Positions 6,871-58,803 are shown, counted from the first letter of the stretch. The stretch is 64,000 nt of DNA from Lentimicrobiaceae bacterium (GCA_037445555.1 JBBIKG010000008.1:14945-78944); one strand, 5' to 3'. Program-made: numbers and translations. The notes: a model not told the origin generated them from the sequence alone.

Positions 6871-6873
6871 TTA

Positions 6874-25558: not shown

Positions 25559-27085
25559 ATGGCTGAGAAGTTTGTAATTGACTGTGGCCTTCTGGATTTC
25601 GAAATCATTGAGGCCATTCTTGTAGAAGGCAGGCAGCTGGTACTGGCACCAGAGACCATTGAACGTATTCAACGTTGCCGCGACTATCTTGACAACAAAG
25701 TCGAAACCTCTGCAGAACCCATTTATGGTGTCAATACCGGTTTTGGCGCGCTGTGTGATGTGAAAATCTCTAAGCACGAGCTGGGCACGTTGCAGCGAAA
25801 TCTGGTGATGAGCCATGCCTGCGGCGTGGGTAACGAAGTTTCGTCCGACATAGTCAAACTGATGCTGCTGCTCAAAATTCAGTCGCTCGCTTACGGCCAT
25901 AGCGCGGTCCAGGTTGAGACAGTGCAGCGGTTGGTTGATTTTTTCAATCACGACGTGTTGCCGGTGGTATATGAATTCGGGTCGCTGGGTGCTTCGGGCG
26001 ACCTTGCCCCCCTTGCACACGTGTCGCTACCTCTGTTGGGAATGGGTGAGGTTTGGTTTGAAGGGGGAAAAAAACCGGCATCAGATGTGCAGAAAAAATT
26101 CGGTTGGCAACCCATTGAGATGAAATCAAAGGAGGGGCTGGCGTTGCTGAATGGAACCCAGTTTATGAGCGCTATCGGCGTTATGGCTTGCCTGAAGGCA
26201 TTCAGGTTATCGCGCCTGGCCGATATTATTTCAGCCATATCACTCGATGCGTTTGATGGCCGGATCGAACCTTTTCATGAACACATACAACAGATCAGGC
26301 CGCATAAAGGCCAGATTAAAACTGCCGCACGCATACGTGCCCTGCTTGACGGAAGCGAGCTGATAAACCGTTTCAAACTCCACGTGCAGGACCCGTATTC
26401 GTTCCGTTGCATACCCCAGGTTCACGGCGCATCAAAAGACTCGATCAATTATGTAGCGTATGTTTTCCGCAAGGAGATCAACAGCGTGACGGATAATCCC
26501 ACTGTGTTCCCTGACGAAGACCTGGTAATCTCGGCAGGAAATTTCCATGGTCAACCCCTTGCCCTGGCTTTTGATAACCTCTGCATTGCTCTGGCCGAAC
26601 TTGGCAGCATATCCGAGAGGCGCACTTACCAGCTTCTGGCAGGCAAACGGGGCCTCCCACATTTTCTGGTAGCCAACTCAGGCCTGAATTCGGGCTTCAT
26701 GATACCACAATATACCGCAGCATCACTGGTAAGCCGAAACAAGCAGCTTTGCACCCCATCATCGGTGGACAGCCTTGAATCGTCGCAGGGGCAGGAAGAC
26801 CATGTGAGCATGGGGGCCAATGCGGCCACCAAAACGCTGCAGGTAATTGACAACCTGAGGAGAATACTGGCTATAGAGTTGTACAATGCCGCACAGGCTA
26901 TGGATTTCCGTCGTCCGGCCGAAACATCAGCGGTGCTTGAGCGCTTCCTGAAAGCCTACCGCAACAGGGTTGCCTTTGTAAGTGACGACAAGGTGATGTA
27001 CCACGACATTGCCGCCAGCGTTGAATTTCTGCAGGAAGTGGGCATTGAACTTCCCGGGGAGGATGTGAAGGTTTACAAACTCTGA
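25559..27085 (+). CDS. hutH: Histidine ammonia-lyase (canonical ASG MIO motif)
   Basis: 508 aa. Motifs: YGVNTGFGAL, LVMSHACGVG (Ser-His selectivity pair), GSLGASGDLAPLAH (ASG codons at 25991-25999), QDPYSFRCIPQVHG. Confidence 0.9.
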   Translation: MAEKFVIDCGLLDFEIIEAILVEGRQLVLAPETIERIQRCRDYLDNKVETSAEPIYGVNTGFGALCDVKISKHELGTLQRNLVMSHACGVGNEVSSDIVKLMLLLKIQSLAYGHSAVQVETVQRLVDFFNHDVLPVVYEFGSLGASGDLAPLAHVSLPLLGMGEVWFEGGKKPASDVQKKFGWQPIEMKSKEGLALLNGTQFMSAIGVMACLKAFRLSRLADIISAISLDAFDGRIEPFHEHIQQIRPHKGQIKTAARIRALLDGSELINRFKLHVQDPYSFRCIPQVHGASKDSINYVAYVFRKEINSVTDNPTVFPDEDLVISAGNFHGQPLALAFDNLCIALAELGSISERRTYQLLAGKRGLPHFLVANSGLNSGFMIPQYTAASLVSRNKQLCTPSSVDSLESSQGQEDHVSMGANAATKTLQVIDNLRRILAIELYNAAQAMDFRRPAETSAVLERFLKAYRNRVAFVSDDKVMYHDIAASVEFLQEVGIELPGEDVKVYKL

Positions 27086-27097: not shown

Positions 27098-29989
27098 ATG
27101 AAGAAGTTCCTTTTCGCCGGAATGTTATTTATGCTTGTACATGCTCAGGCGCAATACTATACGGCCGGGCAGGATCCTTTTTTGCAACGGTGGAGGCAGT
27201 TGACGACCCCTGGCTTCCGTTTCATTTATCCTGAAAACTGGGAAGGTAATATCCAGGAATTGGCGAAATTCCACGAAATGATAAGACCGCCTCTCTCATC
27301 CCAGCTGGGCAGCAATCCCAGCAGGATACCGGTAGTGCTTCGAAGCCAGAGCATGTTGAGTAATGGTTTTGTGATGTGGGCACCGAAAAGGGTCGAAATG
27401 ATTACTTCCGTTCCTTACGATCACGAAGCCAGCGATTGGATAAATCACCTGACCATACACGAGTTCAGGCATGTGGCGCAGGTTGAAGCTGCCAACGTAT
27501 CCACCACCCGATTCTTATCCCGTATTTTCGGACAGCACATTACAGGTGCTGTTACGGGGCTGCACCTTCCTCTCTGGTTTCTGGAAGGAGACGCCGTGCT
27601 TGCGGAAACCATCTTTTCAAAGGCAGGCCGCGGCAGGCTTCCTTCGTTTTATATGCCCCTTGCCGCCCAGCTGGCCGAAAAGGAAATATATTCATACGAT
27701 AAAGCCATCTTTGGCTCCTACCGCGACATGAATCCCAATCATTACGTAATCGGCTACCACCTGGTATCAGGAATTCAAAAAGATTTTGGTTTTCAACCTT
27801 TCCGGCAGGGCCTTCACCGCTCCGGGACTGTTCCGTTTTTGCCGGCCCGATTTTCGGGTGGAGTTAAACAGGTTACCGGAAAAAGGCCTGAAAAACTTTA
27901 CAGACAGATTTTTTCGAATCTTGCGCAGCAATGGAAAACAGAATCCGGAACAACACAAACATCAGAGTTCGTATCGGTAAGCGGTACCACCAGACTTGAT
28001 TACGCAAACTATCACAACCCGCATTTCCTGGATTCATCGGGGGCCATGATTGCCGTTCGTACTGCACCCTCCGATATACCGAGAGTGGTTGTAGTAAATG
28101 AAAACAAGAAAGATTCCATTCTTTTCTCGCCCGGATACGGATTTTACAACACCTTCAGCTATGCCTCGGGCAGGGCAGTGTGGACGGAGATTACCTACGA
28201 TCCCCGGTGGTCATATCGCGTATATTCCAACATACGGGTGCTTGACCTCGCAGGAGGAAAGAGCCGGTTAATTGGCGGGAAGCAAAGACTGCAATCTCCC
28301 GGATTATCTGCCGACGGAAAAAAAATCGTTGCCATCGAACTGGACGAAATCAACAAATGGAGACTCGTTCTTGTAGATGCGGAATCAGGGGAGGAATTAT
28401 ATTCATACAGCAACAACAGTTTTTCATTGTTACAGGACCCATGTTTCGATGAAGCAGACGGCACCATAGTCGCAGTAGGGTTCGAGCAAACTTCGGGTAA
28501 ATGGCTGGTAGCCATCAACCCCTGCAATCAGACCATCGTTCCTCTTTTCAATGCCGGACACACGCAGATAAGCCATCCTGTGGTTTATGACGGCATCATA
28601 TACTTTACCGGGGCCTGGAGCGGAAAAGATGAAATTTATGCGTTCGATCGCAGGTCAGAACATGTCAGCAGGTGCGTAAACACTCCTTTTGGAGCAATGC
28701 ATGCTAAGTTATCAACCGACGGCGGAACAATCGTATTCAACAATCTGACCAGTGAAGGAACTAAGATTGCCAAAGCAGGAAACAAACCCGGTGCCATCGT
28801 TGATCCGAAGGGAATCACTGACTCCTCTCCGCGACTTTTTTTGAGGGGGCAGCAGGAAACAATATTTCCTCTCAAAGAAATTGCATATGCTGATACCATT
28901 TTCCCTACCCGAAAGTTTAACAAACTGATGAACGCGTTGCACTTTCACAGCTGGGCGCCTGCCTACCTGAATGTTGCAGGTATGACGGCAGGAACAGGAC
29001 TGACGTTTTTTTCGCAGGACCTGCTTGGATCCACCGTATTCTCAGGGGGCTATCAATCGGTGCCTGAAAACAAAGGCAACTGGTTTTTTGCTGATCTCTC
29101 GCTAAAAGCATTCTATCCTGTGCTTTCCGTCAGAAACGAAACCGGATGGGAAGACCGTCATTACCGCACCGGAGATCAGACGACAGTGAAACTGAAAACC
29201 GACGTATACAAGCTGACGGGGTCGGCAAGTCTTCCGTTATCGTTTCAGTCCAATTCCATCCTTTGGGGATTTTCGCCCCGGGTGAGCACCTCTCAGGAAT
29301 TTTATGTCTTTACCTACCAGAACAAAGAGAATCAAAGAAGCATCCAGTCGATGTCGTATCGCATGTATTTATATGCGTATCGTCGTATGGCTTTGCGTGA
29401 CTTGTTTCCCAGGCTTGGGATTGCTTCGTCCTTTCAGTTCAGCCACACTCCCTTTGCCGGCGACAATACCAGCAACCGTATTGATGCAGGAACCCGGAAA
29501 ATTTTCGAGGTATCAACCTACCTGCCTGGTTTGCTAAGACACCACAGCTTCAGGGCGTATTACGGAAAACAGTTCATCCATCCGCAGCGCACCTATTTCA
29601 CAAGCGCCCTGCCATTCGCACGTGGATATACCAGTCCTTCGTCGCCATCAGAATTAACCACCCTGCTGCTGCGATACTCGTTTCCCTTGGCCTATCCCGA
29701 CCTTGCCGTAGGCTCGCTCTTGTATGCCAAGCGGCTGAAGGCAACCCTTTTCTACGATTTCAGCTACCGCTCTTTAGATGGCGGTTCCGGCAGTTTTGAA
29801 TCGGCAGGTCTGGATGTACTGGCCGATGTTCACCTATTGAGAATGCCTATGCCTTTTGAGCTGGGATTTCGTTTTATATACCGGCTGAATGACAATAAGC
29901 CAGGCTTTAAGCTGGTTTGGAGTGTGGATTTCTACACCCTGGGCAGGTTGTTCGGATCGGGATCGTTTGCACCTCTTGTTTTTAAATAG
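27098..29989 (+). CDS. Large secreted protein: MA-clan HExxH metallopeptidase-like N-domain, TolB/PD40-like beta-propeller repeats and a probable beta-rich C-terminal region
   Basis: 963 aa with a signal peptide (MLFMLVHAQAQ). It has HEFRH followed by WFLEGDAVLAE (Peptidase_MA_2-like pattern) and repeats such as LSADGKKIVAIE and LSTDGGTIVFN. Confidence 0.55.
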   Translation: MKKFLFAGMLFMLVHAQAQYYTAGQDPFLQRWRQLTTPGFRFIYPENWEGNIQELAKFHEMIRPPLSSQLGSNPSRIPVVLRSQSMLSNGFVMWAPKRVEMITSVPYDHEASDWINHLTIHEFRHVAQVEAANVSTTRFLSRIFGQHITGAVTGLHLPLWFLEGDAVLAETIFSKAGRGRLPSFYMPLAAQLAEKEIYSYDKAIFGSYRDMNPNHYVIGYHLVSGIQKDFGFQPFRQGLHRSGTVPFLPARFSGGVKQVTGKRPEKLYRQIFSNLAQQWKTESGTTQTSEFVSVSGTTRLDYANYHNPHFLDSSGAMIAVRTAPSDIPRVVVVNENKKDSILFSPGYGFYNTFSYASGRAVWTEITYDPRWSYRVYSNIRVLDLAGGKSRLIGGKQRLQSPGLSADGKKIVAIELDEINKWRLVLVDAESGEELYSYSNNSFSLLQDPCFDEADGTIVAVGFEQTSGKWLVAINPCNQTIVPLFNAGHTQISHPVVYDGIIYFTGAWSGKDEIYAFDRRSEHVSRCVNTPFGAMHAKLSTDGGTIVFNNLTSEGTKIAKAGNKPGAIVDPKGITDSSPRLFLRGQQETIFPLKEIAYADTIFPTRKFNKLMNALHFHSWAPAYLNVAGMTAGTGLTFFSQDLLGSTVFSGGYQSVPENKGNWFFADLSLKAFYPVLSVRNETGWEDRHYRTGDQTTVKLKTDVYKLTGSASLPLSFQSNSILWGFSPRVSTSQEFYVFTYQNKENQRSIQSMSYRMYLYAYRRMALRDLFPRLGIASSFQFSHTPFAGDNTSNRIDAGTRKIFEVSTYLPGLLRHHSFRAYYGKQFIHPQRTYFTSALPFARGYTSPSSPSELTTLLLRYSFPLAYPDLAVGSLLYAKRLKATLFYDFSYRSLDGGSGSFESAGLDVLADVHLLRMPMPFELGFRFIYRLNDNKPGFKLVWSVDFYTLGRLFGSGSFAPLVFK

Positions 29990-33837: not shown

Positions 33838-35040
33838 TCACACCGCTTCAATCACTGCAGCAATGCCCTGGCCTACACCAATACACATGGTACAGAGGGC
33901 TTTTCTGCGACCTGTTTGCCTTAGCTGGTGCGCGGCGGTGGTAATTAATCTTGCCCCGCTCATACCGAGAGGATGTCCCAGGGCTATTGCGCCGCCATAC
34001 CTGTTTATTCTTGGGTCTTGATCGTCAAGGTTCAAGCTGCGGATGCAGGCCAGGGCCTGAGCGGCAAATGCTTCATTCAGTTCTATGATGTCCATCTGAT
34101 CTATCGACAGGGAAAGCCTGTTGAGCAGTTTTGCGGTGGCCGGCACCGGCCCTATACCCATGACACGAGGTAAAACACCTGCTGTAGCAACGCCTAAAAC
34201 GCGGGCCATAGGTTCCAGCCTGAATCGTCTGACGGCTGAATCAGAGGCGATCAGCAGTGCGGCAGCACCATCGTTTATGCCTGAAGAGTTCCCTGCAGTG
34301 ATAGTGCCTTCAGGGCGTGTGAGCGGTTTCAGGGCTGCAAGTTTTTCAGCGGAGGTAGGCCTCGGATGCTCGTCAGCGGATACCATGAGGGGATCACTTT
34401 TTCGTTGTGGGATCACCACTGGAACAGTTTCCGCTTCAAAATACCTGTTTTGCTGAGCTTCCAAGGCCTTTTCCTGACTCCAGAGGGCAAAGGCATCCTG
34501 GTCTTCACGACTGATATTCATTTCAGTCGCAAGATTTTCGGCTGTCTCCATCATCGAATCGATACCGTATCGTTTTTCAATGGCCGGGTTTACAAACCGC
34601 CAACCGAGCGTAGTGTCATACATTTTTACAGATCTTGAAAAAGGTTCAGTGGCCTTATCCATCACAAACGGGGCGCGCGACATGCTTTCCACCCCACCTG
34701 CAATGACCAGGTCGGTTTCACCAGCCATGATTGCCCTGGCCGCCATTCCGACAGCATCCATGCCCGACCCGCAAAGCCTGTTAACCGTAACCCCTGAAAT
34801 GGTTTCAGGCAAGCCTGCCAGCAGCAGGGCCAAACGTGCTACATTCCGGTTGTCCTCTCCTGCCTGGTTGGCACATCCGGCCATGACATCATCAAGCTGT
34901 GTCCAATCGACACCGGCATGGCGCTGCGCGAGTTCACGAATCACATATGCCAGCAGATCGTCAGGCCTGACTGGTGACAACGCCCCGCCATAACGGCCAA
35001 TCGGTGTCCGAAGAGCATCAATAATATAGGCTTCTTTCAT
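33838..35040 (-). CDS. Acetyl-CoA C-acyltransferase (thiolase)
   Basis: Start taken at [15 protein letters not shown]. Motifs: [11 protein letters not shown] (active-site Cys), [30 protein letters not shown]. Confidence 0.9.
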
Positions 35041-35105
35041 CTTTAATATAATTTTGGCCGAGAGGTCACCAGAGTATCCCACTGATGATCAACTATATGA
35101 ATTTC

Positions 35106-36455
35106 TCAGGCAATAATCTTTTCGAGATCGGCTTTAAAGTATCTAAAGGCTCCCAACATTGCTTCCGCAAGTCGATCAACTTCAAACTGGGTTAAGGCGG
35201 TTGAAAACATGCAGGACAAAGTGTTCACCATCATTATCCTTTCCCGGTGAAACAGATAATTCAGTATCTCATCCACGAGCGCTGCGGTTTCTTTTGGTTG
35301 ATAGGCTTCGCGGTAGGTAGCGGGTGGTGTTTGTTGTAGATGAATACGGAACATAGAACCGGCCCCTGTCAGCGATACCGGCACATCGGCGACTCTGACG
35401 GCCTCTTCAATCTGGTCCATTGCCTTGCGGGTCATCTGGTTAAGCCGCTGAACAGCCAGTTGATCAAACAGTTCCATGGCCACCCTTCCGGCGGTTGTTG
35501 TAATCGGATTTGCTGAAAACGTTCCGGAGTGCGGAAAGAGCAGTTTGCTCATACGCGGATCCAGCACCTGCATCACTTCGGTGCGGCCGCCGAATGCGCC
35601 AACAGGGAAACCTCCACCGATGATTTTTCCAAAAGCCGTAAGATCGGGACGAACCGAGTATCTTTCCTGCGCACCGCCATATCCAACCCTGAAAGTCACC
35701 ACTTCATCAAAAACCAGCAGGGCACCATGTTTTCTGGTCCAGGCATGAACAGCCTCCACAAACTCATCGCTTGCAGGCACCAGGCCTACGCGATGCGGCA
35801 CCGGGTCGAGCAAAACACAGGCAATGCTGCCGGCATGCCGGTCAAGAATGGTTAGCGTTTTCTCAACATCGTTGAACGGGAAAATGATCACATCCTCAAG
35901 CACACCCTTGGGTGTGCCATATGCCAGCGGAACACTACTGGGATTCTCAACATCTCCCCAATTCGCAGGATTGGATGTTTGGCTCACTTCGGCATAGTCG
36001 TAGGTGCCATGATACGCCCCTTCAGCCTTTGCAATTTTTGGCCGTCCGGTAAACGCTCTGGCTGCCTTGATCATGGCCATGACTGCTTCGGTGCCTGAAT
36101 TCACGAAACGTATTTTCTCGAGTCCTGCAACACGCTGCGTCATCAGCCTGGCAAACTGAACTTCGGCCTCAGTAGCCATGGTGTATGCAGTGCCCTTGGT
36201 CAGCTGTTCAACAACGGCTGCAACAATAGCCGGGTGTGCGTGACCATGTATCAGCGAAGCCATGTTATTGGCAAAATCGACTCGGCAAACTCCGTCCACA
36301 TCGGTGACATAACAACCAGAGGCGTATGACGCGTAATGGGGATGAGGTTTCTGGAAAACTGTGTTGCGGCTGACACCGCCGGCAATGAACTGACATGCCA
36401 GTTCATACAGGCTCCCGCTTTTTTTATCCTGCTGTTGGTCTGATTGATTTGTCAT
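35106..36455 (-). CDS. Class-III (GSA-2,1-aminomutase-like) PLP aminotransferase; candidate beta-amino acid / beta-aminoacyl transaminase
   Basis: Start chosen at MTNQSDQ (M53 of the track ORF); alternatives are at 36548 and 36611. Motifs: GGVSRN, FVNSGTEA, LVFDEVVTFR, FGKIIGGGFPVGAFGG (Schiff-base Lys context). Confidence 0.75.
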   Translation of the reverse strand: MTNQSDQQQDKKSGSLYELACQFIAGGVSRNTVFQKPHPHYASYASGCYVTDVDGVCRVDFANNMASLIHGHAHPAIVAAVVEQLTKGTAYTMATEAEVQFARLMTQRVAGLEKIRFVNSGTEAVMAMIKAARAFTGRPKIAKAEGAYHGTYDYAEVSQTSNPANWGDVENPSSVPLAYGTPKGVLEDVIIFPFNDVEKTLTILDRHAGSIACVLLDPVPHRVGLVPASDEFVEAVHAWTRKHGALLVFDEVVTFRVGYGGAQERYSVRPDLTAFGKIIGGGFPVGAFGGRTEVMQVLDPRMSKLLFPHSGTFSANPITTTAGRVAMELFDQLAVQRLNQMTRKAMDQIEEAVRVADVPVSLTGAGSMFRIHLQQTPPATYREAYQPKETAALVDEILNYLFHRERIMMVNTLSCMFSTALTQFEVDRLAEAMLGAFRYFKADLEKIIA

Positions 36456-36588
36456 TCCGCGGTAAGGCGTTGAATTAATATGATTTTCCGTAAAGCAGAT
36501 TTTTCTGGGTACTGACAATTTGCCGTTGTGGCCGGCAGCAATATTCATTGCATTTTTATAAGTGTTTATGCCCTTCCTTTTTGATGTA

Positions 36589-37245
36589 TCAATACGTGAA
36601 AAGCCTGGCATCGGTTTTCTCCTGAAGGTATCCGAAGCTTACACCTGGAGCCATCTCCCTGACAAAAAGCTTGTTGTCGAACACATCAATCACTGCAAGA
36701 TTGGTATAGATACGGTTTACCACTCCTTTGCCGGTCAGGGGATAGGTGCACTCTCCTACAATCTTGGATTCTCCGGTTTTTGTATTGTGCTGGCTTATCA
36801 CATAGATTGTCTTCACGCCGGCCACAAGATCCATTGCTCCACCCACGGCGGGAATGGCATCGGGTTCACCCGTTGACCAGTTGGCCAGGTCGCCCGATTC
36901 TGACACCTGCAAGGCTCCGAGAACGCAGACATCGATATGTCCTCCGCGTATCATGGTGAAGCTATCAGCGTGATGAAAAAAACATGCGCCCGGGATGGCT
37001 GTGACGCATTTCTTTCCGGCATTGATCAGCTCCGGATCTTCAGAACCCCGAGCGGCGGTCGGTCCCATACCAAGCATGCCATTTTCAGTATGGTAGATCA
37101 CTTCGCGGCCTTCGGGCACAAAAGTGGCTACCAGCTCTGGAATTCCAATTCCGAGGTTGACGTATGCCCCATCCGGTATGTCCGATGCCACCTTGCGGGC
37201 CACTTCATTCATATCCCACCCTATGGGTGTGTCACTGGCTACCAT
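36589..37245 (-). CDS. 3-oxoacid CoA-transferase subunit B
   Basis: 218 aa with the typical YVNLGIGIP and TENGMLGMGP (catalytic Glu context) motifs. It overlaps subunit A by 7 nt. Confidence 0.9.
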   Translation of the reverse strand: MVASDTPIGWDMNEVARKVASDIPDGAYVNLGIGIPELVATFVPEGREVIYHTENGMLGMGPTAARGSEDPELINAGKKCVTAIPGACFFHHADSFTMIRGGHIDVCVLGALQVSESGDLANWSTGEPDAIPAVGGAMDLVAGVKTIYVISQHNTKTGESKIVGECTYPLTGKGVVNRIYTNLAVIDVFDNKLFVREMAPGVSFGYLQEKTDARLFTY

Positions 37246-37952
37246 GGGTACCTCCTTTGTTCTGCTATCAGTCTCGATTCGTCGGCAGGGTTTGCAACCT
37301 GAACAACCCTTGAAACAAAAATTCCCGGTGTGATAATGGATTCAGGATCAAGCCAGCCTACTTCAACAATTTCTCTGGCCTGAACAATGGTGGTGCCGGC
37401 GGCGGTGCACATAACCGGCCCAAAATTTCGGGCTGTTTTATTGTACACTAGATTTCCGTAACGGTCGGCAGCCTTGCATTTTACCAGAGCAAAATCGGCG
37501 CGGATGCCATATTCCATCACGTACTTCTTCCCTTTGAACAGCCTGATCTCCTTGCCTTCGGCCAGCACAGTATCGACACCCGAGGGCGTGAAGAATGCAG
37601 GAATGCCTGCCCCGCCAGCTCTGATGCGCTCGGCAAGAGTACCCTGGGGTACAAGTTCGAGTTCAATTTCGCCGTTGCGGTATAATTCAGGAAAAGCGAC
37701 CGAGGCGGCGCTGCGGGGAAAAGAACAGACCACCTTGCTCACCTGACGGTTGGCAATCAGCGCAGCCAATCCCACATAGCCGTTGCCGGTATTATTGCTT
37801 ATCACGGTCAGGTTCTTCACACCGTGGTCCACCAGGGCATGTATCAGTTCAACCGGGCTGCCTGCCTCACCAAAACCACTGATCAGAACAGATGCTCCGT
37901 CAAAAATATCCGACACCGCTTCTGCAACAGATCCGACAATCTTATTTATCAT
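37239..37952 (-). CDS. 3-oxoacid CoA-transferase subunit A
   Basis: 237 aa. Motifs: GASVLISGFGEAGSP, LTVISNN, ELVPQGTLAERIRAGGAGIPAFFTPSG. Confidence 0.9.
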   Translation of the reverse strand: MINKIVGSVAEAVSDIFDGASVLISGFGEAGSPVELIHALVDHGVKNLTVISNNTGNGYVGLAALIANRQVSKVVCSFPRSAASVAFPELYRNGEIELELVPQGTLAERIRAGGAGIPAFFTPSGVDTVLAEGKEIRLFKGKKYVMEYGIRADFALVKCKAADRYGNLVYNKTARNFGPVMCTAAGTTIVQAREIVEVGWLDPESIITPGIFVSRVVQVANPADESRLIAEQRRYPW

Positions 37953-37967
37953 AATAACCTCGGTTTA

Positions 37968-39554
37968 TTACCTGTTTTTTTGCCTGACTTCCTGAATGCT
38001 TTGGAGCAGAAGGTTTTCAATCTCCACCAGTTCATCTTCGTAGAAATGCTTCTCAGACCCGTAGGGCTTCAGGTGAGCGATGGTGTTTTCCTTTTCGTCG
38101 TAGTAGGCAAGAAAAACCTTATCCATCCATTCCATGTTGCGCCCTTCGTTAAACTTAAGAGCAAACAATTTTTGTCCGTTCAGTTCAAGAGTGCCAAGCA
38201 GGGAAATTTTACCGGCGGATGAAGTCATGGTGATGTAGCGCGAAGGCCTGTTGATGGACGGCAGGGAGCGGTATACCATACTGAATACTTTGTCGATCTG
38301 AGCCAGGGGCTGGGTGAAGTAATGGTGCTCTCCGGTAGGTCGGGCGCAGTACATCGAATGAAATCCAATGCCAAGCATGGCAAACAGATTTCCAAGGTCA
38401 ATCCAGTTACCGGCTGATCGATCCACATCCACATTGCCATTTTCGTCCTGGAACAGGCTGATATGATTCATAACCGGGCTTTGGCTTTTGACGGTGGCTC
38501 CATGAGCTTTCAGTCGTCGAATGGCGGCAATGGTGCTAGGGTTCATCAGCTCGCGTGGAGTTGAAAAATGCGACATAAACACCAACTGAATCCCATTGTC
38601 GTAGAGTTTGCGGAATAATTTGAGCATTGGATCGTATTCCCGGGTAATGATCATTTCAGGGTGATACGTGAGCACACGAGTACCGAGGCGAATTGTCTTA
38701 ATATGGCTGAGTTCGGGATCATCAATGATTGGCGTTATATACTCCTCAAAGCGGCTGGCTTTAATCAGCCCTGCATCGCCACCGGTGATAAGCAGATCTG
38801 TTACCTCCTTGTGCTGCTTCAGGTACTGGTGGATCTGATGCACCTCTTTCTGGATAAACATATCGTCATCGCCCCTAACCTGCGCATGCCTGAAACAGTA
38901 GTTGCAGAAAGCGAAGCAGTTCTGGGTTTGCACATCAAAAACAAGCTTGCATTGCGGATATTTATGCTGGCTGCCTTCCACCACCTCAAATTCACCGTCT
39001 TCGTTGATGAAAGTGGGCTTATTTAATTGTTGTTTACCGTCGTGCGGGTTGGTTTCCCTGATGTATTCGCGGGCTATTTTCTCACGTTCCTTGTCAGATC
39101 TGGCTTCGAGGTATTTTTTAGTGACGTCGGCCCTCATCATACCTGGTTGCGGGAAGACGAGCTGAAATACAGAATCCTTTTCAAAATTAGCCCAGTTGAT
39201 AGTGTTGAGCACGTGCTTGGTGGCCATAAACCGATACACTCTGATAAATAATTCGCGCTCGTCGAGATGGCCGATTTTGATTCCGTGATCTGCAAGTACC
39301 TGAACTATTTCTCTGAACCCGCTGATGCCTGAATAATGTTTCTTTTCGTTAAACAGGAATTCGGCATCTTCGTTGAATCCGCTGTATTGCGGATAGGCAA
39401 GGTGCAGGCGGTGCAGTAAACCCTTAGGCAATAGTTCTTCGTGGCGGATAATAGTTTTGGTTTCTTCCGTGAAATGAAAGCGGCCCATTATGGCTTCGAT
39501 GTGCGTGTCTGAAAAGATGCTTTCGTCAACTGAGGTTATCGCTTTATGACTCAT
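37968..39554 (-). CDS. KamA-family radical-SAM/PLP 2,3-aminomutase homolog, extended form (528 aa)
   Basis: CFAFCNYCFRH (CxxxCxxC), LLITGGDAGL (GGD SAM motif), IRLGTRV, and SSAGK at the position of the KamA PLP lysine (GGGGK). Confidence 0.8.
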   Translation of the reverse strand: MSHKAITSVDESIFSDTHIEAIMGRFHFTEETKTIIRHEELLPKGLLHRLHLAYPQYSGFNEDAEFLFNEKKHYSGISGFREIVQVLADHGIKIGHLDERELFIRVYRFMATKHVLNTINWANFEKDSVFQLVFPQPGMMRADVTKKYLEARSDKEREKIAREYIRETNPHDGKQQLNKPTFINEDGEFEVVEGSQHKYPQCKLVFDVQTQNCFAFCNYCFRHAQVRGDDDMFIQKEVHQIHQYLKQHKEVTDLLITGGDAGLIKASRFEEYITPIIDDPELSHIKTIRLGTRVLTYHPEMIITREYDPMLKLFRKLYDNGIQLVFMSHFSTPRELMNPSTIAAIRRLKAHGATVKSQSPVMNHISLFQDENGNVDVDRSAGNWIDLGNLFAMLGIGFHSMYCARPTGEHHYFTQPLAQIDKVFSMVYRSLPSINRPSRYITMTSSAGKISLLGTLELNGQKLFALKFNEGRNMEWMDKVFLAYYDEKENTIAHLKPYGSEKHFYEDELVEIENLLLQSIQEVRQKNR

Positions 39555-39680
39555 GAGTAATTGATGTTTTTTATTTACCGTTCACAAGGCTGTCGACCCA
39601 TTCCGGAAATCCTGACTATCAAGCTAAAACCTTTAACGATAGTGCCTTGCAAACCCAATAAGTGACGGGTTAATTTATGG

Positions 39681-39688
39681 CAAATGTA
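39681..39688 (-). promoter_or_regulatory. -7 box TACATTTG (minus strand) for the aminomutase operon
   Basis: Plus strand caaatgta. It implies a leader of about 120 nt before the ATG at 39554. Confidence 0.35.
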
Positions 39689-39897
39689 TGGATATTTGGG
39701 CAGACCGCAGGCTATTTTAATATTGCAAAAAGAATTTTTTCGGTGTTATGGTGGGTATGAATAAACCGGGGCGGCTTGTATTCCCGATAGCCCTGGGGGT
39801 AAACTGCGATGCCCACAGAAATATACTGCTGAATATGAGGATAATGTACCTGCACGCGTAAGGCTTCGATTTTTTGACAACCTGCAGGGTTTTGAAT

Positions 39898-39905
39898 TAT
39901 ATTTG
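39898..39905 (+). promoter_or_regulatory. -7 box TATATTTG
   Basis: Matches TAnnTTTG, 21 nt upstream of ATG 39927. It lies inside the track's TTG-extended ORF, which argues for the ATG start. Confidence 0.45.
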
Positions 39906-39926
39906 CGACCATATTCCAATGCAACC

Positions 39927-41267
39927 ATGAATATTATTATAGCCGGAGATGGCGAGGTAGGGTTTCATCTAGCCAAACTGCTTTCAGATGAACGGCACAA
40001 TATCCGCATAGTAGATCCGCACGAGGAATTGCTCAAGATGGTTGAATCGCATACCGATTTGTTGGCCATTACCGGTAATTCCACGTCCATTTCGGTGCTC
40101 GAAAACGCCAACATTCGCAAAGCCGATTTATTGATATCGGTAGTCCACGACGAACACATCAACCTGGTCACCTGTGTACTAGGCAAGAAACTGGGGGCAA
40201 AGCGCACCATTGCCCGTATCAACAATGCGGAGTACCTGATTCCCGAAAACCAGGAGCTCCTCCGATCGCTGGGTATCGACGCCTTGGTCTGTCCTGAACG
40301 TATTGCGGCTGCAGAGATAATTCGACTGCTTCAGCAAACAGCAGCTACAGAGATATTTGACTTTTCAGGCGGCCGGCTGATGCTTTTTCTCATCAAGCTC
40401 GATGAAAAAGCGCTGGTGCTAAACAAATCGCTCAACGAAATCGCAACCGAAAACCCAAGGCTGGAATTCAGGGCGGTGGCCATTCACCGCGCGGGCAAAA
40501 CAATCATTCCGAGGGGGGAAGACAAGTTTATGATCAACGATCTTGCTTATGTGGTCACCAAGCCGTCAGGAGTGTCGGAGTTGCTCAGACTGGGGGGCAA
40601 GGTGAAACACGAAATCCGAAACGTGATGATTATCGGAGGTGGACGTATAGGACGCGAATCTGCTCTTAGGCTCGAGAACCAATACAATGTTAAATTGGTT
40701 GAAATCGACAAGGATCGCTGCGTGGCCTTGTCGGACATTTTGCTGAACACACTTATAATCAACGGAGATGCCCGCGACACCCATCTTCTTGAAGACGAAG
40801 GCATCCGGAGCATGGACGCATTCATTGCGGTTACGGATGATACCGAAACCAACCTTTTCTCGTGTTTGCTTGCACAAAGGCTTGGGGTGAAAAGGGTAAT
40901 CCCCCTGATCGAAAATATTGACTACATCGATATTTCGCAGAGCATTGGCATTGAGTCTATTATCAATAAAAAACTCACCACCGCCAGCCACATAGCACAA
41001 TATACCATGGATGCCGAGGTGTCAGCCATCAAGTACCTGAGCGGAATAGATGCCGAAGTGTTGGAGTTTGTGGCCCGGCCGAACTCTAAAATCACCAAAA
41101 ATCAGATCAAGAAAGTGACCACGCCTCCCGGCTCGCTGATCGGAGGTGTTATCCGAGGCGAGGAAAGCATTATAGCCGTTGGAAGCACTCAGGTGATGGA
41201 AGGCGACAAAGTGGTTGTGTTTTCTATTCCCGAAAGTGTAAGCAAGGTGCTTGAGCTTTTCAAATAG
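39927..41267 (+). CDS. trkA: Trk potassium uptake system NAD-binding protein TrkA
   Basis: Start at MNIIIAGDGEVG. There is a second Rossmann motif (VMIIGGGRIG) and two RCK_C regions. Confidence 0.9.
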   Translation: MNIIIAGDGEVGFHLAKLLSDERHNIRIVDPHEELLKMVESHTDLLAITGNSTSISVLENANIRKADLLISVVHDEHINLVTCVLGKKLGAKRTIARINNAEYLIPENQELLRSLGIDALVCPERIAAAEIIRLLQQTAATEIFDFSGGRLMLFLIKLDEKALVLNKSLNEIATENPRLEFRAVAIHRAGKTIIPRGEDKFMINDLAYVVTKPSGVSELLRLGGKVKHEIRNVMIIGGGRIGRESALRLENQYNVKLVEIDKDRCVALSDILLNTLIINGDARDTHLLEDEGIRSMDAFIAVTDDTETNLFSCLLAQRLGVKRVIPLIENIDYIDISQSIGIESIINKKLTTASHIAQYTMDAEVSAIKYLSGIDAEVLEFVARPNSKITKNQIKKVTTPPGSLIGGVIRGEESIIAVGSTQVMEGDKVVVFSIPESVSKVLELFK

Positions 41268-41298: not shown

Positions 41299-42762
41299 AT
41301 GCCCGACTCTAGCAGGATACATATAGGTGTGATCATTAAATCGCAAGGTGTTTTCCTGATGATTGTAGGAGCTATGATGGCCACCAGTGCCTTTTTCTCC
41401 TTTTACTACAAGGAAAACGACGGATATGCCATATTGCTTTCGAGTGGCATTACCATCCTGACCGGCCTTGTGCTCTACCTCGTCAACCGCAGGGTTGACA
41501 TGAGCCTCATCAGCAAGAAGGATGGATTTGTGATTGTCTCATCCACCTGGGTTTTTATGTCGCTTTTCGGCACCTTGCCTTTCCTGATCAGCGGCCAGAT
41601 ACCGGATTTCACCGACGCCTTTTTCGAAACGATGTCGGGGTTCACAACTACTGGTGCCACCATACTCACTGACATTGAAAGCATGACGCATGGCCTGCTT
41701 TTCTGGCGCAGCCTGACGCACTGGATCGGTGGGATGGGCATAATTGTTCTTTCGCTGGCCATAATGCCGGTGTTGGGTATCGGAGGGATGCAGCTTTTTG
41801 TTGCCGAGGTTCCGGGGCCAACCAAGGACAAGCTTCATCCGCGGATAGCTGATACCGCAAAAAGGTTATGGGGAATCTATGTCATTCTTACCGTGCTCGA
41901 AACCGGACTTCTGATGGCCGGCGGGATGAATCTGCACGAAGGCCTTTGCCATGCCTTCGGTACCATGGCCACCGGGGGGTTTTCGACGCGCAACGACAGT
42001 ATTGCAGGATTTTCGCCCTACATTCAATATGTGATCATCGTATTCATGTTCCTGGCCGGAGTAAGTTTCGTGCTTCACTATTATGCCTTGCATCTTAAGT
42101 TCAATAAGGTTTTCCGGAATGAAGAATTCAGGGCATATACCATTTTGATCGTGCTTTCGGCAATAGCTCTGTCTGTTTCATTGCTGCTATTTCACGAGTT
42201 GGGTGTGGAAGAAACTTTCCGTGCATCGCTTTTCCAAACTGTTTCGATAGTCACCACCACCGGATATATAACGTCGGATTATCTCTTCTGGCCCTCATTC
42301 ACCTGGCTGCTCATCTTCCTGCTCATGTTTACCGGGGGATGCGCCGGGAGCACTGGAGGCAGTGTCAAAATTATTCGTCAACTGTTACTCCTAAAAAACA
42401 GCCGTCTTGAGCTGAAAAGGCTTATCCATCCCAAAGCCATAATTCCGGTACGCCTCGACGGAAAATCGATTTCGGAGCAGGTAATTAACAATGTTCTCGC
42501 GTTTTTCCTGATATATATGCTGGTTTTTATTTCCGGATCCCTGATCATGTCGATGCTCGGCCTCGACTTTGAAAGCTCGCTCGGGTCGGTGGCGGCATGC
42601 CTGGGCAATGTGGGCCCCGGAATTGGCCTGGTGGGACCGGTGCACAATTATTCATTTATTCCTGTTGCCGGAAAATGGGTTCTGGCATTTTTGATGCTGC
42701 TTGGAAGGCTTGAACTTTTCACGGTATTGATCCTCTTCTCCGCCTCATTCTGGCGAAAATAA
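41299..42762 (+). CDS. trkH: Trk-type K+ transporter membrane subunit TrkH (copy 1)
   Basis: 487 aa, polytopic. Motifs: FFETMSGFTTTGATIL, WRSLTHWIGGMGIIVL, GGCAGSTGGSVK. Confidence 0.9.
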   Translation: MPDSSRIHIGVIIKSQGVFLMIVGAMMATSAFFSFYYKENDGYAILLSSGITILTGLVLYLVNRRVDMSLISKKDGFVIVSSTWVFMSLFGTLPFLISGQIPDFTDAFFETMSGFTTTGATILTDIESMTHGLLFWRSLTHWIGGMGIIVLSLAIMPVLGIGGMQLFVAEVPGPTKDKLHPRIADTAKRLWGIYVILTVLETGLLMAGGMNLHEGLCHAFGTMATGGFSTRNDSIAGFSPYIQYVIIVFMFLAGVSFVLHYYALHLKFNKVFRNEEFRAYTILIVLSAIALSVSLLLFHELGVEETFRASLFQTVSIVTTTGYITSDYLFWPSFTWLLIFLLMFTGGCAGSTGGSVKIIRQLLLLKNSRLELKRLIHPKAIIPVRLDGKSISEQVINNVLAFFLIYMLVFISGSLIMSMLGLDFESSLGSVAACLGNVGPGIGLVGPVHNYSFIPVAGKWVLAFLMLLGRLELFTVLILFSASFWRK

Positions 42763-42768: not shown

Positions 42769-44223
42769 ATGACGGCTATTCATTTTCGGGTAATTATAAA
42801 GAGTATCAGTCTTTTCCTGATAGTTATCGCGGGATTTATGCTGGCGTGTATCCCTGTTTCGATGCTGTACGGAGCTTTGGCGGTTAATGCCCTGGTCAAA
42901 TCATTTGCAATCACCATATCGTTTGGACTATTGGGATGGTTCGTTGCCGGACCTTTTGAAAAAGAAAATCTCGGACGTCGCGAGTCATTCATCATCGTAA
43001 CCCTTACCTGGGTGATTATTGCGGTGTTCGGATCCCTACCCTATCTGTTTAGCGGATCAATCCATACGTTCACCGATGCTTTTTTTGAGACCATGTCAGG
43101 CTTCACAACTACGGGGGCTTCGATACTTACGGACATCGAAGCCGTTCCACGCAGCATTCTGTTTTGGCGAAGCCTTACCCACTGGATCGGAGGCATGGGC
43201 ATCGTTGTTTTTTCAATCGCCTTCCTGCCGTTTTTCGGTATTGGGGGCATGCAGCTCTTTGCTGCCGAGGTTCCGGGGCCTACCAAGGACAAGATTCATC
43301 CGCGTATCACACAAACAGCCAAACGCTTGTGGCTGATTTATTTTACCCTGACCGTGGCGCAGATCATATTTCTGTTGTTCGGACACATGAATTTGTTCGA
43401 AGCCACCTGCCATTCGTTCGCTACTGTATCAAGCGGCGGATTTTCAACACGAAATCTGAGCATTGGAGCTTTTTCGCCCTATGTTCAATACATCACGGTG
43501 TTTTTTATGATAATGGCCGGGGTCAATTTCACCATGCATTACCTTGTTCAGCATGGGCGATTCAGGGAAGTATTTCATAATGAAGAACTTAGACTCTATC
43601 TTGGCGTAATAGCTGTAGCGGTTGCAGTGCTGACCTTCGCATTGTACAGGCTCGACTACGCCTCGCTCGAAAAAACCTTCCGCCACGTGCTTTTTCAGGT
43701 TGTTAGTATTGTGACCTGTACAGGTTTCGGCACAGCCGACTACATGCGCTGGCCATCGTTTGCCTGGTTCATGATTTTTTTGTTGATGTTTGCCGGAGGA
43801 TGTGCCGGAAGCACTAGCGGAGGAATAAAAATGATACGGCATGTCTTACTTTTCAAGAATGCCTACCTGGAGTTTCGTTCTATTATTCACCCCTCGGCTT
43901 ACGTTCCCCTGCGTTATAATCAAAAACCGGTAAGTAATAATATCCGCATCAATGTACTAGCCATTTTCTTTCTTTACCTGGCCACATTTGCATTAGGTTC
44001 ACTGCTGATGGGCGCCGCGGGTCTCGATAAAATTAGCGCAATGGGCTCTGTCGCCTCATGCATGGGCGGCATTGGCCCCGGGTTGGGATCAACCGGTCCG
44101 TCACTCAACTATGCCGAGGTCAGCGTCGCAGGAAAATGGATTTTGTCAGCCCTGATGCTTATTGGGCGACTGGAGCTCTTGACTGTCTATGTGTTATTTA
44201 TGAAAAAATTTTGGAAGAATTAA
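42769..44223 (+). CDS. trkH: Trk-type K+ transporter membrane subunit TrkH (copy 2, tandem paralog)
   Basis: 484 aa with the same motifs (FFETMSGFTTTGASIL, WRSLTHWIGGMGIVVF, GGCAGSTSGGIK). It lies 6 nt after copy 1. Confidence 0.9.
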   Translation: MTAIHFRVIIKSISLFLIVIAGFMLACIPVSMLYGALAVNALVKSFAITISFGLLGWFVAGPFEKENLGRRESFIIVTLTWVIIAVFGSLPYLFSGSIHTFTDAFFETMSGFTTTGASILTDIEAVPRSILFWRSLTHWIGGMGIVVFSIAFLPFFGIGGMQLFAAEVPGPTKDKIHPRITQTAKRLWLIYFTLTVAQIIFLLFGHMNLFEATCHSFATVSSGGFSTRNLSIGAFSPYVQYITVFFMIMAGVNFTMHYLVQHGRFREVFHNEELRLYLGVIAVAVAVLTFALYRLDYASLEKTFRHVLFQVVSIVTCTGFGTADYMRWPSFAWFMIFLLMFAGGCAGSTSGGIKMIRHVLLFKNAYLEFRSIIHPSAYVPLRYNQKPVSNNIRINVLAIFFLYLATFALGSLLMGAAGLDKISAMGSVASCMGGIGPGLGSTGPSLNYAEVSVAGKWILSALMLIGRLELLTVYVLFMKKFWKN

Positions 44224-54208: not shown

Positions 54209-55300
54209 ATGGAATACATCGCGCGGCCCACCCTGCTACTGGATGAGGCCAAATGCATCACAAACATAAGGCGCATGGCTCACAAGGCCAGGGAGAATGG
54301 CGTGCTACTCCGGCCCCACTTCAAGACCCACCAGAGCCGGGATATTGGTCGTTTTTTTCAGGACTTTGGCGTGGACTCCGTCACGGTGTCATCGGTACCG
54401 ATGGCACAATATTTTGCTGCGGCGAGCTGGAGCAATATTACGATAGCTTTTCCGGTGAATCTTCGCGAGCTGCCCGGAATAAACCAACTGGCCGGGAAAG
54501 TACGCCTAAATGTACTGGTCGATTCTGCAGAGGTGGTAAAACGGCTCAGCCAGGGGCTGCATCACCAGGCTGGAGTATTCATAGAGATTGATACGGGCGG
54601 GGGGCGCTCGGGAGCGCCCCCCGCCAACAAAGCCCATCTTCAAGGTCTGATTAGCGAAATCAAAAAATCCCCGAATCTGGAATTTCGTGGCTTCCTGACA
54701 CATGCCGGTCAAACCTATGAGGCGCGGGGCGAACAGGCAATCCTGCAGATTCATACCCAATCCACAGCCCTGATGGCCGAACTGAAAAACTATTTTTCAT
54801 CAGAAAACCCAATCATTTCCACAGGCGACACCCCCTCGTGCAGCCTGGCCAATGAGTTTGGCTGCACCGATGAAATCCGGCCCGGAAATTTTGTGTTTTA
54901 CGACCTTACGCAGCACTATATCGGAAGCTGCGCACTGGAAGATGTTGCCGTGGCAGTGGCCTGCCCCGTGGTGGCGAAATACGCTTCACGCAACGAGCTG
55001 GTGATCTGTGGCGGGGCTATTCACCTGAGTAAAGATTTTGCTGTCAATTCACGCGGCGTGAAAGTGTTTGGACGCCTGGCCTTACTTGATGACGATCACT
55101 GGAAGGCTCTGCCGGAAGGTAATGAGCTGATCTCGCTGTCGCAGGAACACGGAGTAGCCCGGATGGAAGAAAAGTACATAAAGCTGCTTTCGCCCGGCGA
55201 CCTGGTCTGCGTCATACCTGCCCATTCCTGCCTTACAGTTGCATTACACAGCCAGTATCAGGGCCTGAGCGGCAGGCAATACGACATCATGCAGCGGTAA
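54209..55300 (+). CDS. D-TA-family PLP enzyme (alanine-racemase-fold; D-threonine aldolase / D-serine dehydratase-like)
   Basis: 363 aa. RPHFKTHQS (PLP-Lys context), and HSC near the C-terminus. Confidence 0.7.
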   Translation: MEYIARPTLLLDEAKCITNIRRMAHKARENGVLLRPHFKTHQSRDIGRFFQDFGVDSVTVSSVPMAQYFAAASWSNITIAFPVNLRELPGINQLAGKVRLNVLVDSAEVVKRLSQGLHHQAGVFIEIDTGGGRSGAPPANKAHLQGLISEIKKSPNLEFRGFLTHAGQTYEARGEQAILQIHTQSTALMAELKNYFSSENPIISTGDTPSCSLANEFGCTDEIRPGNFVFYDLTQHYIGSCALEDVAVAVACPVVAKYASRNELVICGGAIHLSKDFAVNSRGVKVFGRLALLDDDHWKALPEGNELISLSQEHGVARMEEKYIKLLSPGDLVCVIPAHSCLTVALHSQYQGLSGRQYDIMQR

Positions 55301-58323: not shown

Positions 58324-58399
58324 GGGGATGAAATCTTAGATGCGAATTGGGCATTCATCAAAAATAGGCATATTTTGCATAGAACGGGCACACTTTTTG

Positions 58400-58407: not shown

Positions 58408-58424
58408 CAGGGCAGATATCATAT

Positions 58425-58796: not shown

Positions 58797-58803
58797 GCCA
58801 TAA

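Follow-up and report, generated by a model that had tools for sequence, protein, structure and literature searches.

Which amino acid could be degraded by a compact gene set that joins a radical aminomutase to enzymes of beta-keto acid cleavage, and by what route? The question is raised by a 64,000-nucleotide (nt) stretch of DNA from a Lentimicrobiaceae bacterium (GCA_037445555.1 JBBIKG010000008.1:14945-78944; the whole stretch is called the window below), in which positions 33838-39554 hold five intact open reading frames (ORFs), all on the minus strand, encoding a KamA-family aminomutase, the two subunits of a 3-oxoacid coenzyme A (CoA) transferase, a class-III aminotransferase and a thiolase. 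An earlier sequence-only reading had described five co-directional, packed genes, which the ORF listing of the window bore out (the 15-nt gap and 7-nt overlap match exactly), and had proposed a four-step logic of aminomutase, beta-transaminase, 3-oxoacid CoA-transferase and thiolase acting on 'Lys, Leu, Glu, Arg or other'. This logic stands in our analysis, given a conserved cluster, a transaminase that is not HemL, and a transferase and thiolase of the PcaIJ and PcaF types; 'other' is most likely 2-aminoadipate, and the acyl-CoA released would be succinyl-CoA.

Using genomic evidence throughout, we propose that the five genes are a self-contained unit for the catabolism of L-2-aminoadipate, which arises when lysine and hydroxylysine are degraded, and assign this reading a probability of roughly 0.7. 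Three independent lines make 2-aminoadipate the probable substrate: an arginine (Arg405) in the predicted aminomutase pocket, orthology of the downstream genes to pcaIJF, and neighboring genes in related loci whose products form 2-aminoadipate. Since the enzymes encoded by pcaIJF use 3-oxoadipate, a C6 dicarboxylate, the amino acid that would yield their substrate after a 2,3-amino shift and beta-transamination is 2-aminoadipate. With this substrate the stoichiometry of the module would also close: the succinyl-CoA spent by the transferase would be replaced by the thiolase.

In the proposed route, a radical S-adenosylmethionine (SAM) and pyridoxal 5'-phosphate (PLP) 2,3-aminomutase would convert L-2-aminoadipate to 3-aminoadipate by moving the amino group from C2 to C3, after which a class-III beta-transaminase would use a 2-oxo acid to convert 3-aminoadipate to 3-oxoadipate. 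A PcaIJ-type transferase would then exchange 3-oxoadipate and succinyl-CoA for 3-oxoadipyl-CoA and succinate, and a PcaF-type thiolase would cleave 3-oxoadipyl-CoA to acetyl-CoA and succinyl-CoA. Overall, 2-aminoadipate, a 2-oxo acid and CoA would yield an amino acid, succinate and acetyl-CoA without O2, oxidative decarboxylation or net redox change, which would suit anaerobes. The predicted third and fourth steps draw on orthology to characterized enzymes; active-site residues and gene neighborhoods suggest the first two steps and the identity of the substrate.

Enzyme families and active-site residues

The aminomutase gene (37968..39554, minus strand) encodes 528 amino acids. Its product matched the KamA-family model TIGR00238 at 74 bits, below the cut-off of 199, and gave no Pfam match, with Radical_SAM unreported at E≤0.001. 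Models for lysine, glutamate, arginine, AblA-like and EpmB proteins gave 55–69 bits against cut-offs of 369–650, including 68 bits for the lysine 2,3-aminomutase equivalog TIGR03820 (cut-off 525), 64 bits for glutamate 2,3-aminomutase (cut-off 650), 65 bits for arginine 2,3-aminomutase (cut-off 600) and 55 bits for EpmB (cut-off 369). Falling below every cut-off and forming a tight family of its own, the radical-SAM protein lies outside the EpmB, lysine, glutamate and arginine types, consistent with the earlier proposal of a catabolic rather than an EpmB-type enzyme. The sole sequence match among solved structures was lysine 2,3-aminomutase 2A5H (51 bits, residues 183-362). The same structure was the top Foldseek match of an AlphaFold2 model of the protein (predicted local distance difference test 86.6; predicted template modeling (TM) score 0.88), with an E value of 4e-13 and a target-normalized TM score of 0.63 over ~434 columns; the next radical-SAM enzymes had E values >6e-4, leaving 2A5H ahead by about nine orders of magnitude. 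By this wide margin, a KamA-like fold is the best match for the predicted structure.

KamA numbering (D293, D330 and K337) was verified on genuine KamA fragments of at most 289 amino acids, and residues were mapped between the two proteins using MAFFT via 60 intermediate relatives and hhalign profile-profile alignment (probability 99.9). The cysteines C213/C217/C220 of a CxxxCxxC motif, equivalent to KamA C125/C129/C132, and G258-G259-D260, which aligns with the GGD of KamA, are invariant in 46 + 7 family members. MAFFT and hhalign concur in equating the invariant R222 and K449 with KamA R134, which binds the alpha-carboxylate, and K337, the PLP lysine; they also agree on Y402 = Y290, F413 = F301 and P416 = P304. 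These correspondences suggest that radical-SAM/PLP chemistry, presumably a 1,2-amino shift, is retained in what the sub-cut-off scores mark as a remote, separate KamA subfamily.

Two pocket residues bear on the substrate. According to the paper describing 2A5H, D293 and D330 of KamA reportedly hold the epsilon-ammonium group of lysine, and the sequence-only reading had singled out their equivalents for inspection. Both methods place R405, which is invariant in both family alignments, at D293. For D330, MAFFT gives T442 (Thr or Ser across the family) and hhalign a gap; we favor T442 because the phenylalanine and the lysine are 36 residues apart in either family; this second assignment comes from MAFFT and spacing only. 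An arginine at the D293 position argues for an anionic distal group and points to a substrate with an acidic side chain. In addition, the KamA zinc ligand C268 aligns with an invariant or near-invariant serine (S380), and no CxCxxC zinc motif is present in the C-terminal sequence of the aminomutase, a region that is not alignable to KamA.

Subunit A of the predicted 3-oxoadipate-type CoA-transferase (37239..37952, minus strand, 237 amino acids) begins 15 nt past the aminomutase stop codon, and subunit B (36589..37245, minus strand, 218 amino acids) overlaps it by 7 nt. Subunit A matched Pfam CoA_trans and TIGR02429 pcaI_scoA (346 bits; cut-off 128.5) and subunit B matched TIGR02428 pcaJ_scoB (294 bits; cut-off 243.6), both being NCBIfam models that do not separate PcaIJ from ScoAB. 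The sequence TENG in subunit B is what we take to be the catalytic-glutamate motif of class I CoA-transferases. No PcaIJ chain was found among the solved-structure matches of the transferase. When compared to a canonical IclR-pcaI-pcaJ-pcaF operon on a Rhizobium plasmid, the window proteins were 61% (PcaI), ~57% (PcaJ) and 64% (PcaF) identical, and it is this identity to operon-defined PcaIJ, together with the PcaF partner, that lends indirect support to a specificity for 3-oxoadipate rather than acetoacetate.

The last gene encodes a predicted 3-oxoadipyl-CoA thiolase of the PcaF type (33838..35040, minus strand, 400 amino acids from Met15). With its Thiolase_N/C domains it scored above both curated cut-offs, at 667 bits for NF006551 (cut-off 605) and 643 bits for TIGR02430 pcaF (cut-off 597), versus 348 bits for an acetoacetyl-CoA-type model. 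Likewise, the Pseudomonas putida beta-ketoadipyl-CoA thiolase structures 6PCA-6PCD gave 520–530 bits and acetoacetyl-CoA thiolases ~305 bits. The stretches NRLCGSG, GHPLG and CIGVGQG presumably contain the catalytic Cys, His and Cys of thiolases.

Between the transferase and the thiolase lies the gene for a class-III, glutamate-1-semialdehyde (GSA)-aminomutase-like aminotransferase (35106..36455, minus strand, 449 amino acids from Met53), our proposed 3-aminoadipate (beta) transaminase. It matched Pfam Aminotran_3 (199 bits) and failed both the HemL equivalog TIGR00713 (343 bits; cut-off 527) and NF000818 (339 bits; cut-off 398). The best solved relative was 6K8H (385 bits), followed by ForI (322 bits) and HemL structures (~230 bits). 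As the sequence-only reading had anticipated, the protein is therefore not HemL: it scores below the HemL cut-offs and its nearest solved relative is a beta/gamma transaminase, the Sphaerobacter thermophilus enzyme StoTA, which accepts beta and gamma amino acids as substrates (PMC10589169). R36 of StoTA (proposed to bind the carboxylate of beta-amino acids), K282 (PLP) and T317 are all kept in the window aminotransferase according to our alignment. It looks like a transaminase for free beta-amino acids, with 3-aminoadipate as the proposed substrate.

The longest ORFs of the aminotransferase (36611..35106, 501 amino acids) and thiolase (35082..33838, 414 amino acids) extend beyond these boundaries; 36455 and 35040 are the likely starts because homologs are ~441–447 and ~400 amino acids long, respectively, and family alignments start at Met53 and Met15. 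With these starts, the intergenic distances in gene order are 15, -7, 133 and 65 nt.

Conservation and gene context of the module

The module is conserved as a unit, as the sequence-only reading had supposed, both across Bacteroidota and in many other phyla: all five genes were colinear on one strand in 71 of 86 loci, 14 loci were cut by a contig end and one was an exception. Edwardsbacteria, Melioribacteraceae and a Bacteroidales-like lineage share the gene order with unrelated flanks, and the five-gene arrangement is far beyond chance. Carriers were found in Bacteroidota, Ignavibacteriota, Edwardsbacteria, Cloacimonadota, Sumerlaeota, Acidobacteriota, Desulfuromonadales and Alpha-, Beta- and Gammaproteobacteria.

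A word-indexed search identified 1393 relatives of the aminomutase, the best 120 of which were 65–82% identical, 485–573 amino acids long and mostly unnamed or annotated as 'hypothetical protein' or, by the Joint Genome Institute (JGI), 'lysine 2,3-aminomutase'. The closest were from Lentimicrobiaceae and other Bacteroidales metagenome-assembled genomes (~80% identity), which places the window in a Bacteroidales genome; an exact-sequence lookup of the window aminomutase found nothing on record. After clustering of the library at 50% identity, the family comprised essentially one full-length representative, and the next relatives were 25–41% identical, uncharacterized and below all curated cut-offs. 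A second scan, based on a proteobacterial alignment, returned 469 stretches from a one-genome-per-species collection, with carriers including cultured Shewanella, Photobacterium, Pseudoalteromonas and Motiliproteus in addition to Geobacter, Desulfuromonadales, Cloacimonadota, Sumerlaeota and Acidobacteriota. Throughout the second locus set, the first four genes were present wherever the contig permits.

No kamDE, kdd, kce or kal was found among the annotated or recurrent neighbors in ~160 related loci, and genuine KamA proteins, ~80% identical to the Clostridium enzyme, occur separately in Bacteroidales. Nonribosomal peptide synthetase and polyketide synthase (NRPS/PKS) genes were likewise not seen among recurrent or annotated neighbors of the orthologous module. 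The nearest non-orthologous aminomutase relatives (31–36% identity, ~400–460 amino acids), represented by a Mycetohabitans megaplasmid (locus L091) and Rhodococcus pDK3 (locus L092), are annotated as 'lysine 2,3-aminomutase', belong to NRPS/PKS or ATP-grasp/carrier-protein clusters and are probably suppliers of beta-amino acids for natural products; 38 of 60 such relatives have an arginine where KamA has D293. The genes around P0124 and P0128, the nearest outgroups, gave no useful information.

Neighboring genes link the module to 2-aminoadipate. At the exceptional locus, from Rhodocyclaceae (L086), the thiolase position is held by an L-piperideine-6-carboxylate dehydrogenase (772 bits), an enzyme that makes 2-aminoadipate. 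Using tblastn, we found this dehydrogenase at most 10 kilobases (kb) from the module in 16 of the 78 second-set loci, mostly proteobacterial or Desulfuromonadales, and all six tested candidates adjoining the module passed NF050084 (772–827 bits; cut-off 730). In Ramlibacter, Rubrivivax, Rhodocyclaceae and Anderseniella its gene comes immediately after that of the aminotransferase, and in L095 and L163 it follows the thiolase; L121, L136, L142 and L146 (Geobacter) carry it upstream in the same orientation, and L102 (same SAR324 contig as L057), L123, L143 and L166 have it nearby. It is often in the operon of the module (L095, L121, L136, L142, L146 and L163).

Four dehydrogenase-bearing loci also contain a gene of the saccharopine-dehydrogenase family, to which lysine 6-dehydrogenase and saccharopine reductase belong. 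This gene adjoins the module in L136, L142 (between the piperideine-6-carboxylate dehydrogenase and the module) and L160; in L143 it is found ~8.6 kb upstream in the opposite orientation. The operon in L136 comprises seven genes in the order piperideine-6-carboxylate dehydrogenase, aminomutase, CoA-transferase A, CoA-transferase B, aminotransferase, thiolase and Sacchrp_dh. At a SAR324 locus (L090, 5667-7916), a 749-amino-acid fusion of an APH kinase and a class-III aminotransferase lies beside a piperideine-6-carboxylate dehydrogenase, and the locus also holds a DadA-like flavoenzyme and a polar amino-acid ABC transporter. The fusion architecture suggests a hydroxylysine kinase combined with a phosphohydroxylysine phospho-lyase, and bacterial catabolism of hydroxylysine (collagen); in the hydroxylysine pathway these enzymes feed 2-aminoadipate semialdehyde (PMC5200902).

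Other recurrent neighbors are LysR regulators, or XRE-HTH/cupin regulators in Bacteroidales, and ABC, SSF and BCCT transporters; such a combination of regulator and transporter is the signature of an inducible catabolic operon. An SSF symporter upstream of the module in nine Bacteroidales loci hints at substrate uptake, and a 4HBT thioesterase recurs beside the module in nine loci.

Several additional arrangements were observed around the module or its homologs. The closest plasmid-borne homologs of the CoA-transferase (67% and 65% identity), on Tistrella mobilis plasmid pTM2 (L087, 1599-9391), have no aminomutase beside them. They adjoin genes for an aminotransferase, a piperideine-6-carboxylate dehydrogenase (798 bits) and a protein resembling the HglS/DUF1338 2-oxoadipate dioxygenase, a further and distinct tie between this transferase subfamily and 2-aminoadipate metabolism. 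Directly 3' of the module and on the same strand, Candidatus Edwardsbacteria (L001/L002, 15748-21563) carries Iso_dh and a 744-amino-acid HMGL-like and CoA_transf_3 fusion, then an unknown 229-amino-acid protein and the large and small subunits of aconitase, which could be a homocitrate- or citramalate-type chain-elongation set or a CoA-ester lyase set. A homocitrate-type route to 2-oxoadipate could exist in Edwardsbacteria, a single lineage with an atypical fusion. Finally, a GIDA-like FAD oxidoreductase (~428 amino acids, no NCBIfam match) recurs near the module in L093, L095, L121 and L146, a 542-amino-acid protein without a family match recurs in L094, L095 and L146, and a fragment of a POR-gamma-containing 2-oxoacid:ferredoxin oxidoreductase lies near the module in L093.

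Alternative reaction orders and substrates

Several points weigh against 2-aminoadipate as the substrate. The mapping of R405 to D293 comes from alignment at ~16–17% identity, and an arginine there would suit glutamate or a different dicarboxylic amino acid as well. Transferases of the PcaIJ family and thiolases of the PcaF type can take other 3-oxoacids, and loci of Burkholderiales and of a few further lineages in the second set lack the thiolase. The link to piperideine-6-carboxylate dehydrogenase was seen outside Bacteroidota only, and 2-aminoadipate-forming genes are absent from the window and from the vicinity of the module in Bacteroidales loci; for Bacteroidales, including the lineage of the window, the proposed assignment draws on orthology (58–80% identity, invariant pocket residues). 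Lastly, 3-aminoadipate is without documented biology in the searchable literature, the lone match to 'beta-aminoadipic' being a typographical error in a reference list.

The alternative that survives best leaves the substrate and enzymes unchanged and exchanges two steps, which the sequence-only reading had allowed: the transferase would act first, converting 3-aminoadipate to 3-aminoadipyl-CoA, and a Kat-like transamination of the CoA ester would give 3-oxoadipyl-CoA. Kat is the class-III acyl-CoA beta-transaminase of the alternative lysine fermentation, where it acts on 3-aminobutyryl-CoA. Transferase-first catalysis would make the reaction order match the gene order (mutase, transferase A, transferase B, aminotransferase, thiolase), and the 4HBT thioesterase near the module hints at CoA-ester housekeeping. 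However, PcaIJ, to which the transferase is 57–61% identical, takes the free 3-oxo acid, and the nearest characterized relative of the aminotransferase uses free beta-amino acids. We favor the transaminase acting before the transferase, given the resemblance of the transferase to PcaIJ and the presence in the transaminase of the arginine proposed to bind a free carboxylate, and we regard the reverse order as unlikely.

Glutamate is a considerably less probable candidate. It would be converted to beta-glutamate and 3-oxoglutarate, followed either by formation of 3-oxoglutaryl-CoA and cleavage to malonyl-CoA and acetyl-CoA or by decarboxylation to acetoacetate, which would pass through acetoacetyl-CoA to two acetyl-CoA. 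Glutamate 2,3-aminomutase, like the window enzyme, carries a basic amino acid (Lys) where KamA has D293, and glutamate is far more abundant than 2-aminoadipate. The near absence of knowledge on beta-glutamate catabolism, which is represented by one KEGG reaction (PMC12502400), also counts in favor of this reading. Nevertheless, the aminomutase scored at about a tenth of the cut-off for the glutamate 2,3-aminomutase equivalog, the thiolase is of the PcaF rather than the acetoacetyl-CoA type by both models and structures, and the five genes would leave malonyl-CoA undisposed. The recurrent in-operon partners form 2-aminoadipate rather than glutamate, and we downgraded glutamate after the piperideine-6-carboxylate dehydrogenase finding.

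Still more doubtful is another dicarboxylic or bifunctional amino acid, such as 2-aminopimelate or meso-diaminopimelate from peptidoglycan, or operation of the module in the biosynthetic direction, producing 3- or 2-aminoadipate from succinyl-CoA and acetyl-CoA. While the basic pocket residue indicates only an anionic distal group, equivalog-level similarity of the thiolase to PcaF points to a C6 dicarboxylate. Biosynthesis would be compatible with the reversibility in principle of all four reaction types and with the nearest relatives in NRPS/PKS clusters, which presumably supply beta-amino acids. The neighbors of the orthologous module, in contrast, are catabolic in type (LysR or XRE-cupin regulators, amino-acid ABC, SSF and BCCT transporters, and enzymes leading from lysine to 2-aminoadipate), and NRPS/PKS genes are missing from among those that recur or were annotated.

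Lysine fermentation is the least credible of these readings. Here the aminomutase would act on lysine, together with an acetoacetate CoA-transferase, a Kat-type transaminase and a thiolase, with kamDE, kdd and kce encoded elsewhere. JGI labels some family members 'lysine 2,3-aminomutase', and CoA-transferases are used in both the canonical and the Kat-variant lysine fermentations, with a thiolase also used in the latter. Against this stand the replacement of Asp293 by Arg and of Asp330 by Thr/Ser, the low score against the lysine 2,3-aminomutase equivalog, the separate occurrence of genuine KamA in Bacteroidales, a transferase and thiolase of the 3-oxoadipate type, and the invariable occurrence of the module either alone or with 2-aminoadipate-forming genes, with no kamDE, kdd or kce among the annotated neighbors. 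Leucine through the classical beta-keto pathway was rejected on account of the basic residue in the pocket, a thiolase of the PcaF type and neighbors that form 2-aminoadipate. Lysine as the substrate of the module itself, through the Kat variant or from beta-lysine to 4-aminobutyryl-CoA, was rejected on the same grounds and for the separate genuine KamA in Bacteroidales.

Surrounding window, implications and comparison with known systems

Upstream of the aminomutase, a 348-nt intergenic region (39555..39902) shared with a divergent trkA is the presumed promoter or regulatory region and is without an ORF of at least 80 amino acids. A scan for sigma-70 promoter and terminator consensus sequences found sites no more often than in shuffled sequence, the sigma-70 consensus being one that does not cover Bacteroidota promoters. 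An XRE-HTH/cupin regulator occupies the upstream position in 26 related Bacteroidales loci, with none in this window. The module is flanked by housekeeping genes: one side has a PAP2 protein (identified by Pfam) and hpt, adk and obg (read from translations), and the other has one TrkH copy, MatE and lipopolysaccharide genes by Pfam, along with trkA (39903-41267) and a second trkH copy read from translations. The latter copy (41299-42762, plus strand) follows trkA and adjoins the Pfam-confirmed TrkH-type gene (42769-44223, plus strand). A domain scan of 20 flanking ORFs, which lie from 15.4 to 55.3 kb in the window, detected none of the kamDE, kdd, kce or kal type, and the earlier statement that canonical lysine-fermentation genes are absent holds for this part.

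Elsewhere in the window, two paralogous Lyase_aromatic genes (15421-16959, minus strand, and 25559-27085, plus strand; Pfam 532 and 635 bits) encode histidine ammonia-lyase-like proteins and lie ~8.6 kb apart, one of them directly after hisS (24188-25549). Three tandem pairs of a 1053–1088-amino-acid ORF followed by a 473–496-amino-acid ORF (432-15056, minus strand) probably represent three consecutive loci for the uptake of polysaccharides or peptides, the first pair, at the left end, matching SusC/RagA and SusD solved structures. Positions 58000-64000, which hold a 1387-amino-acid ORF (59149-63312), have a G+C content of 0.39–0.42 versus ~0.49 in the rest of the window and may be foreign DNA. 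A 963-amino-acid ORF (27098-29989, plus strand) and a 391-amino-acid ORF (17103-18278, minus strand) had no Pfam match at E≤1e-5, and a protein with Ala_racemase_N and D-ser_dehydrat domains (54209-55300, plus strand) resembles D-serine/D-threonine dehydratase or aldolase.

Neither the cluster, the route, 3-aminoadipate metabolism nor an aminoadipate aminomutase was found described in full-text searches directed at the route. The enzyme families and the logic are known, and the combination, substrate and intermediate are new. We consider it likely that the module represents an unrecognized, widespread and O2-independent lower pathway of lysine, hydroxylysine and 2-aminoadipate catabolism, proceeding via a new radical-SAM activity (2-aminoadipate 2,3-aminomutase) and 3-oxoadipate. 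If so, amino-acid catabolism would be joined to the last steps of the beta-ketoadipate pathway, the substrates of radical-SAM 2,3-aminomutases, so far Lys, Glu, Arg or modification of elongation factor P (EF-P), would gain a new class, a beta-transaminase would acquire a physiological role, and 3-aminoadipate would be a new metabolite. The module would also account for how strict anaerobes and many marine bacteria could dispose of 2-aminoadipate without recourse to 2-oxoadipate dehydrogenase plus glutaryl-CoA dehydrogenase or to the O2-dependent HglS. Re-annotation would concern ~470 species-level genomes, in which the gene is mostly labeled 'hypothetical protein' or, misleadingly, 'lysine 2,3-aminomutase'. 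A passage on bio-based adipic acid names enzymatic deamination of lysine-derived C6 acids as a bottleneck (PMC7241714), and converting 2-aminoadipate to 3-oxoadipate or 3-oxoadipyl-CoA would link lysine overproduction directly to the reverse-adipate-degradation pathway. With carriers in culture (Shewanella, Photobacterium, Pseudoalteromonas and Motiliproteus), the hypothesis is open to direct tests.

Compared to KamA of Clostridium subterminale (2A5H), the aminomutase shares the CxxxCxxC and GGD motifs, the R134 and K337 counterparts (R222 and K449) and the best fold match. It differs in its low overall identity (~16–17%, a relation missed by BLAST), in being ~110 residues longer with a larger N-terminal region, and in the exchange of zinc ligand C268 for S380, D293 for Arg and D330 for Thr/Ser. 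Unlike AblA, EpmB and the glutamate and arginine types, it belongs to an orthologous group of its own below every curated cut-off. The aminotransferase resembles the GSA-like class-III beta-transaminases (StoTA 6K8H, Mesorhizobium 2YKU and Variovorax 4AO9) and ForI in its P-pocket arginine, PLP lysine and T317-equivalent threonine. Known class-III beta-transaminases have been characterized on aromatic or aliphatic beta-amino acids, as biocatalysts, and to our knowledge no physiological 3-aminoadipate transaminase has been described.

At the level of pathways, proteobacterial and Desulfuromonadales loci share with known lysine and 2-aminoadipate routes a saccharopine-dehydrogenase-family enzyme and piperideine-6-carboxylate dehydrogenase upstream. 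In contrast to the 2-oxoadipate/glutaryl-CoA and HglS/DUF1338 routes, the proposed pathway would involve no C2 transamination, 2-oxoadipate, glutaryl-CoA or O2-dependent HglS step. Like lysine fermentation, it would start with a radical aminomutase and continue with beta-keto cleavage; unlike the KamA-KamDE-Kdd-Kce fermentation, it would require neither a B12-dependent 5,6-aminomutase nor Kce and would end in succinyl-CoA and acetyl-CoA. Its four-step logic is also that of the leucine beta-keto pathway, said to have been described by Poston in the 1970s as leucine 2,3-aminomutase (reportedly B12-dependent), beta-leucine transaminase, CoA transfer and thiolysis, while the basic pocket, the PcaF-type thiolase and the 2-aminoadipate-forming neighbors argue against a hydrophobic substrate here.

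The closest parallel for the second half of the route is the beta-ketoadipate pathway, with 57–64% identity to PcaIJ and PcaF and the same self-regenerating succinyl-CoA cycle expected. Unlike in pcaIJF, the genes are here interleaved with those of the aminomutase and aminotransferase, and the module is found in strict anaerobes and Bacteroidota, where an aerobic aromatic pathway is not expected. Whereas 3-oxoadipate derives from aromatic ring cleavage in the beta-ketoadipate pathway, in the module it would derive from an amino acid.

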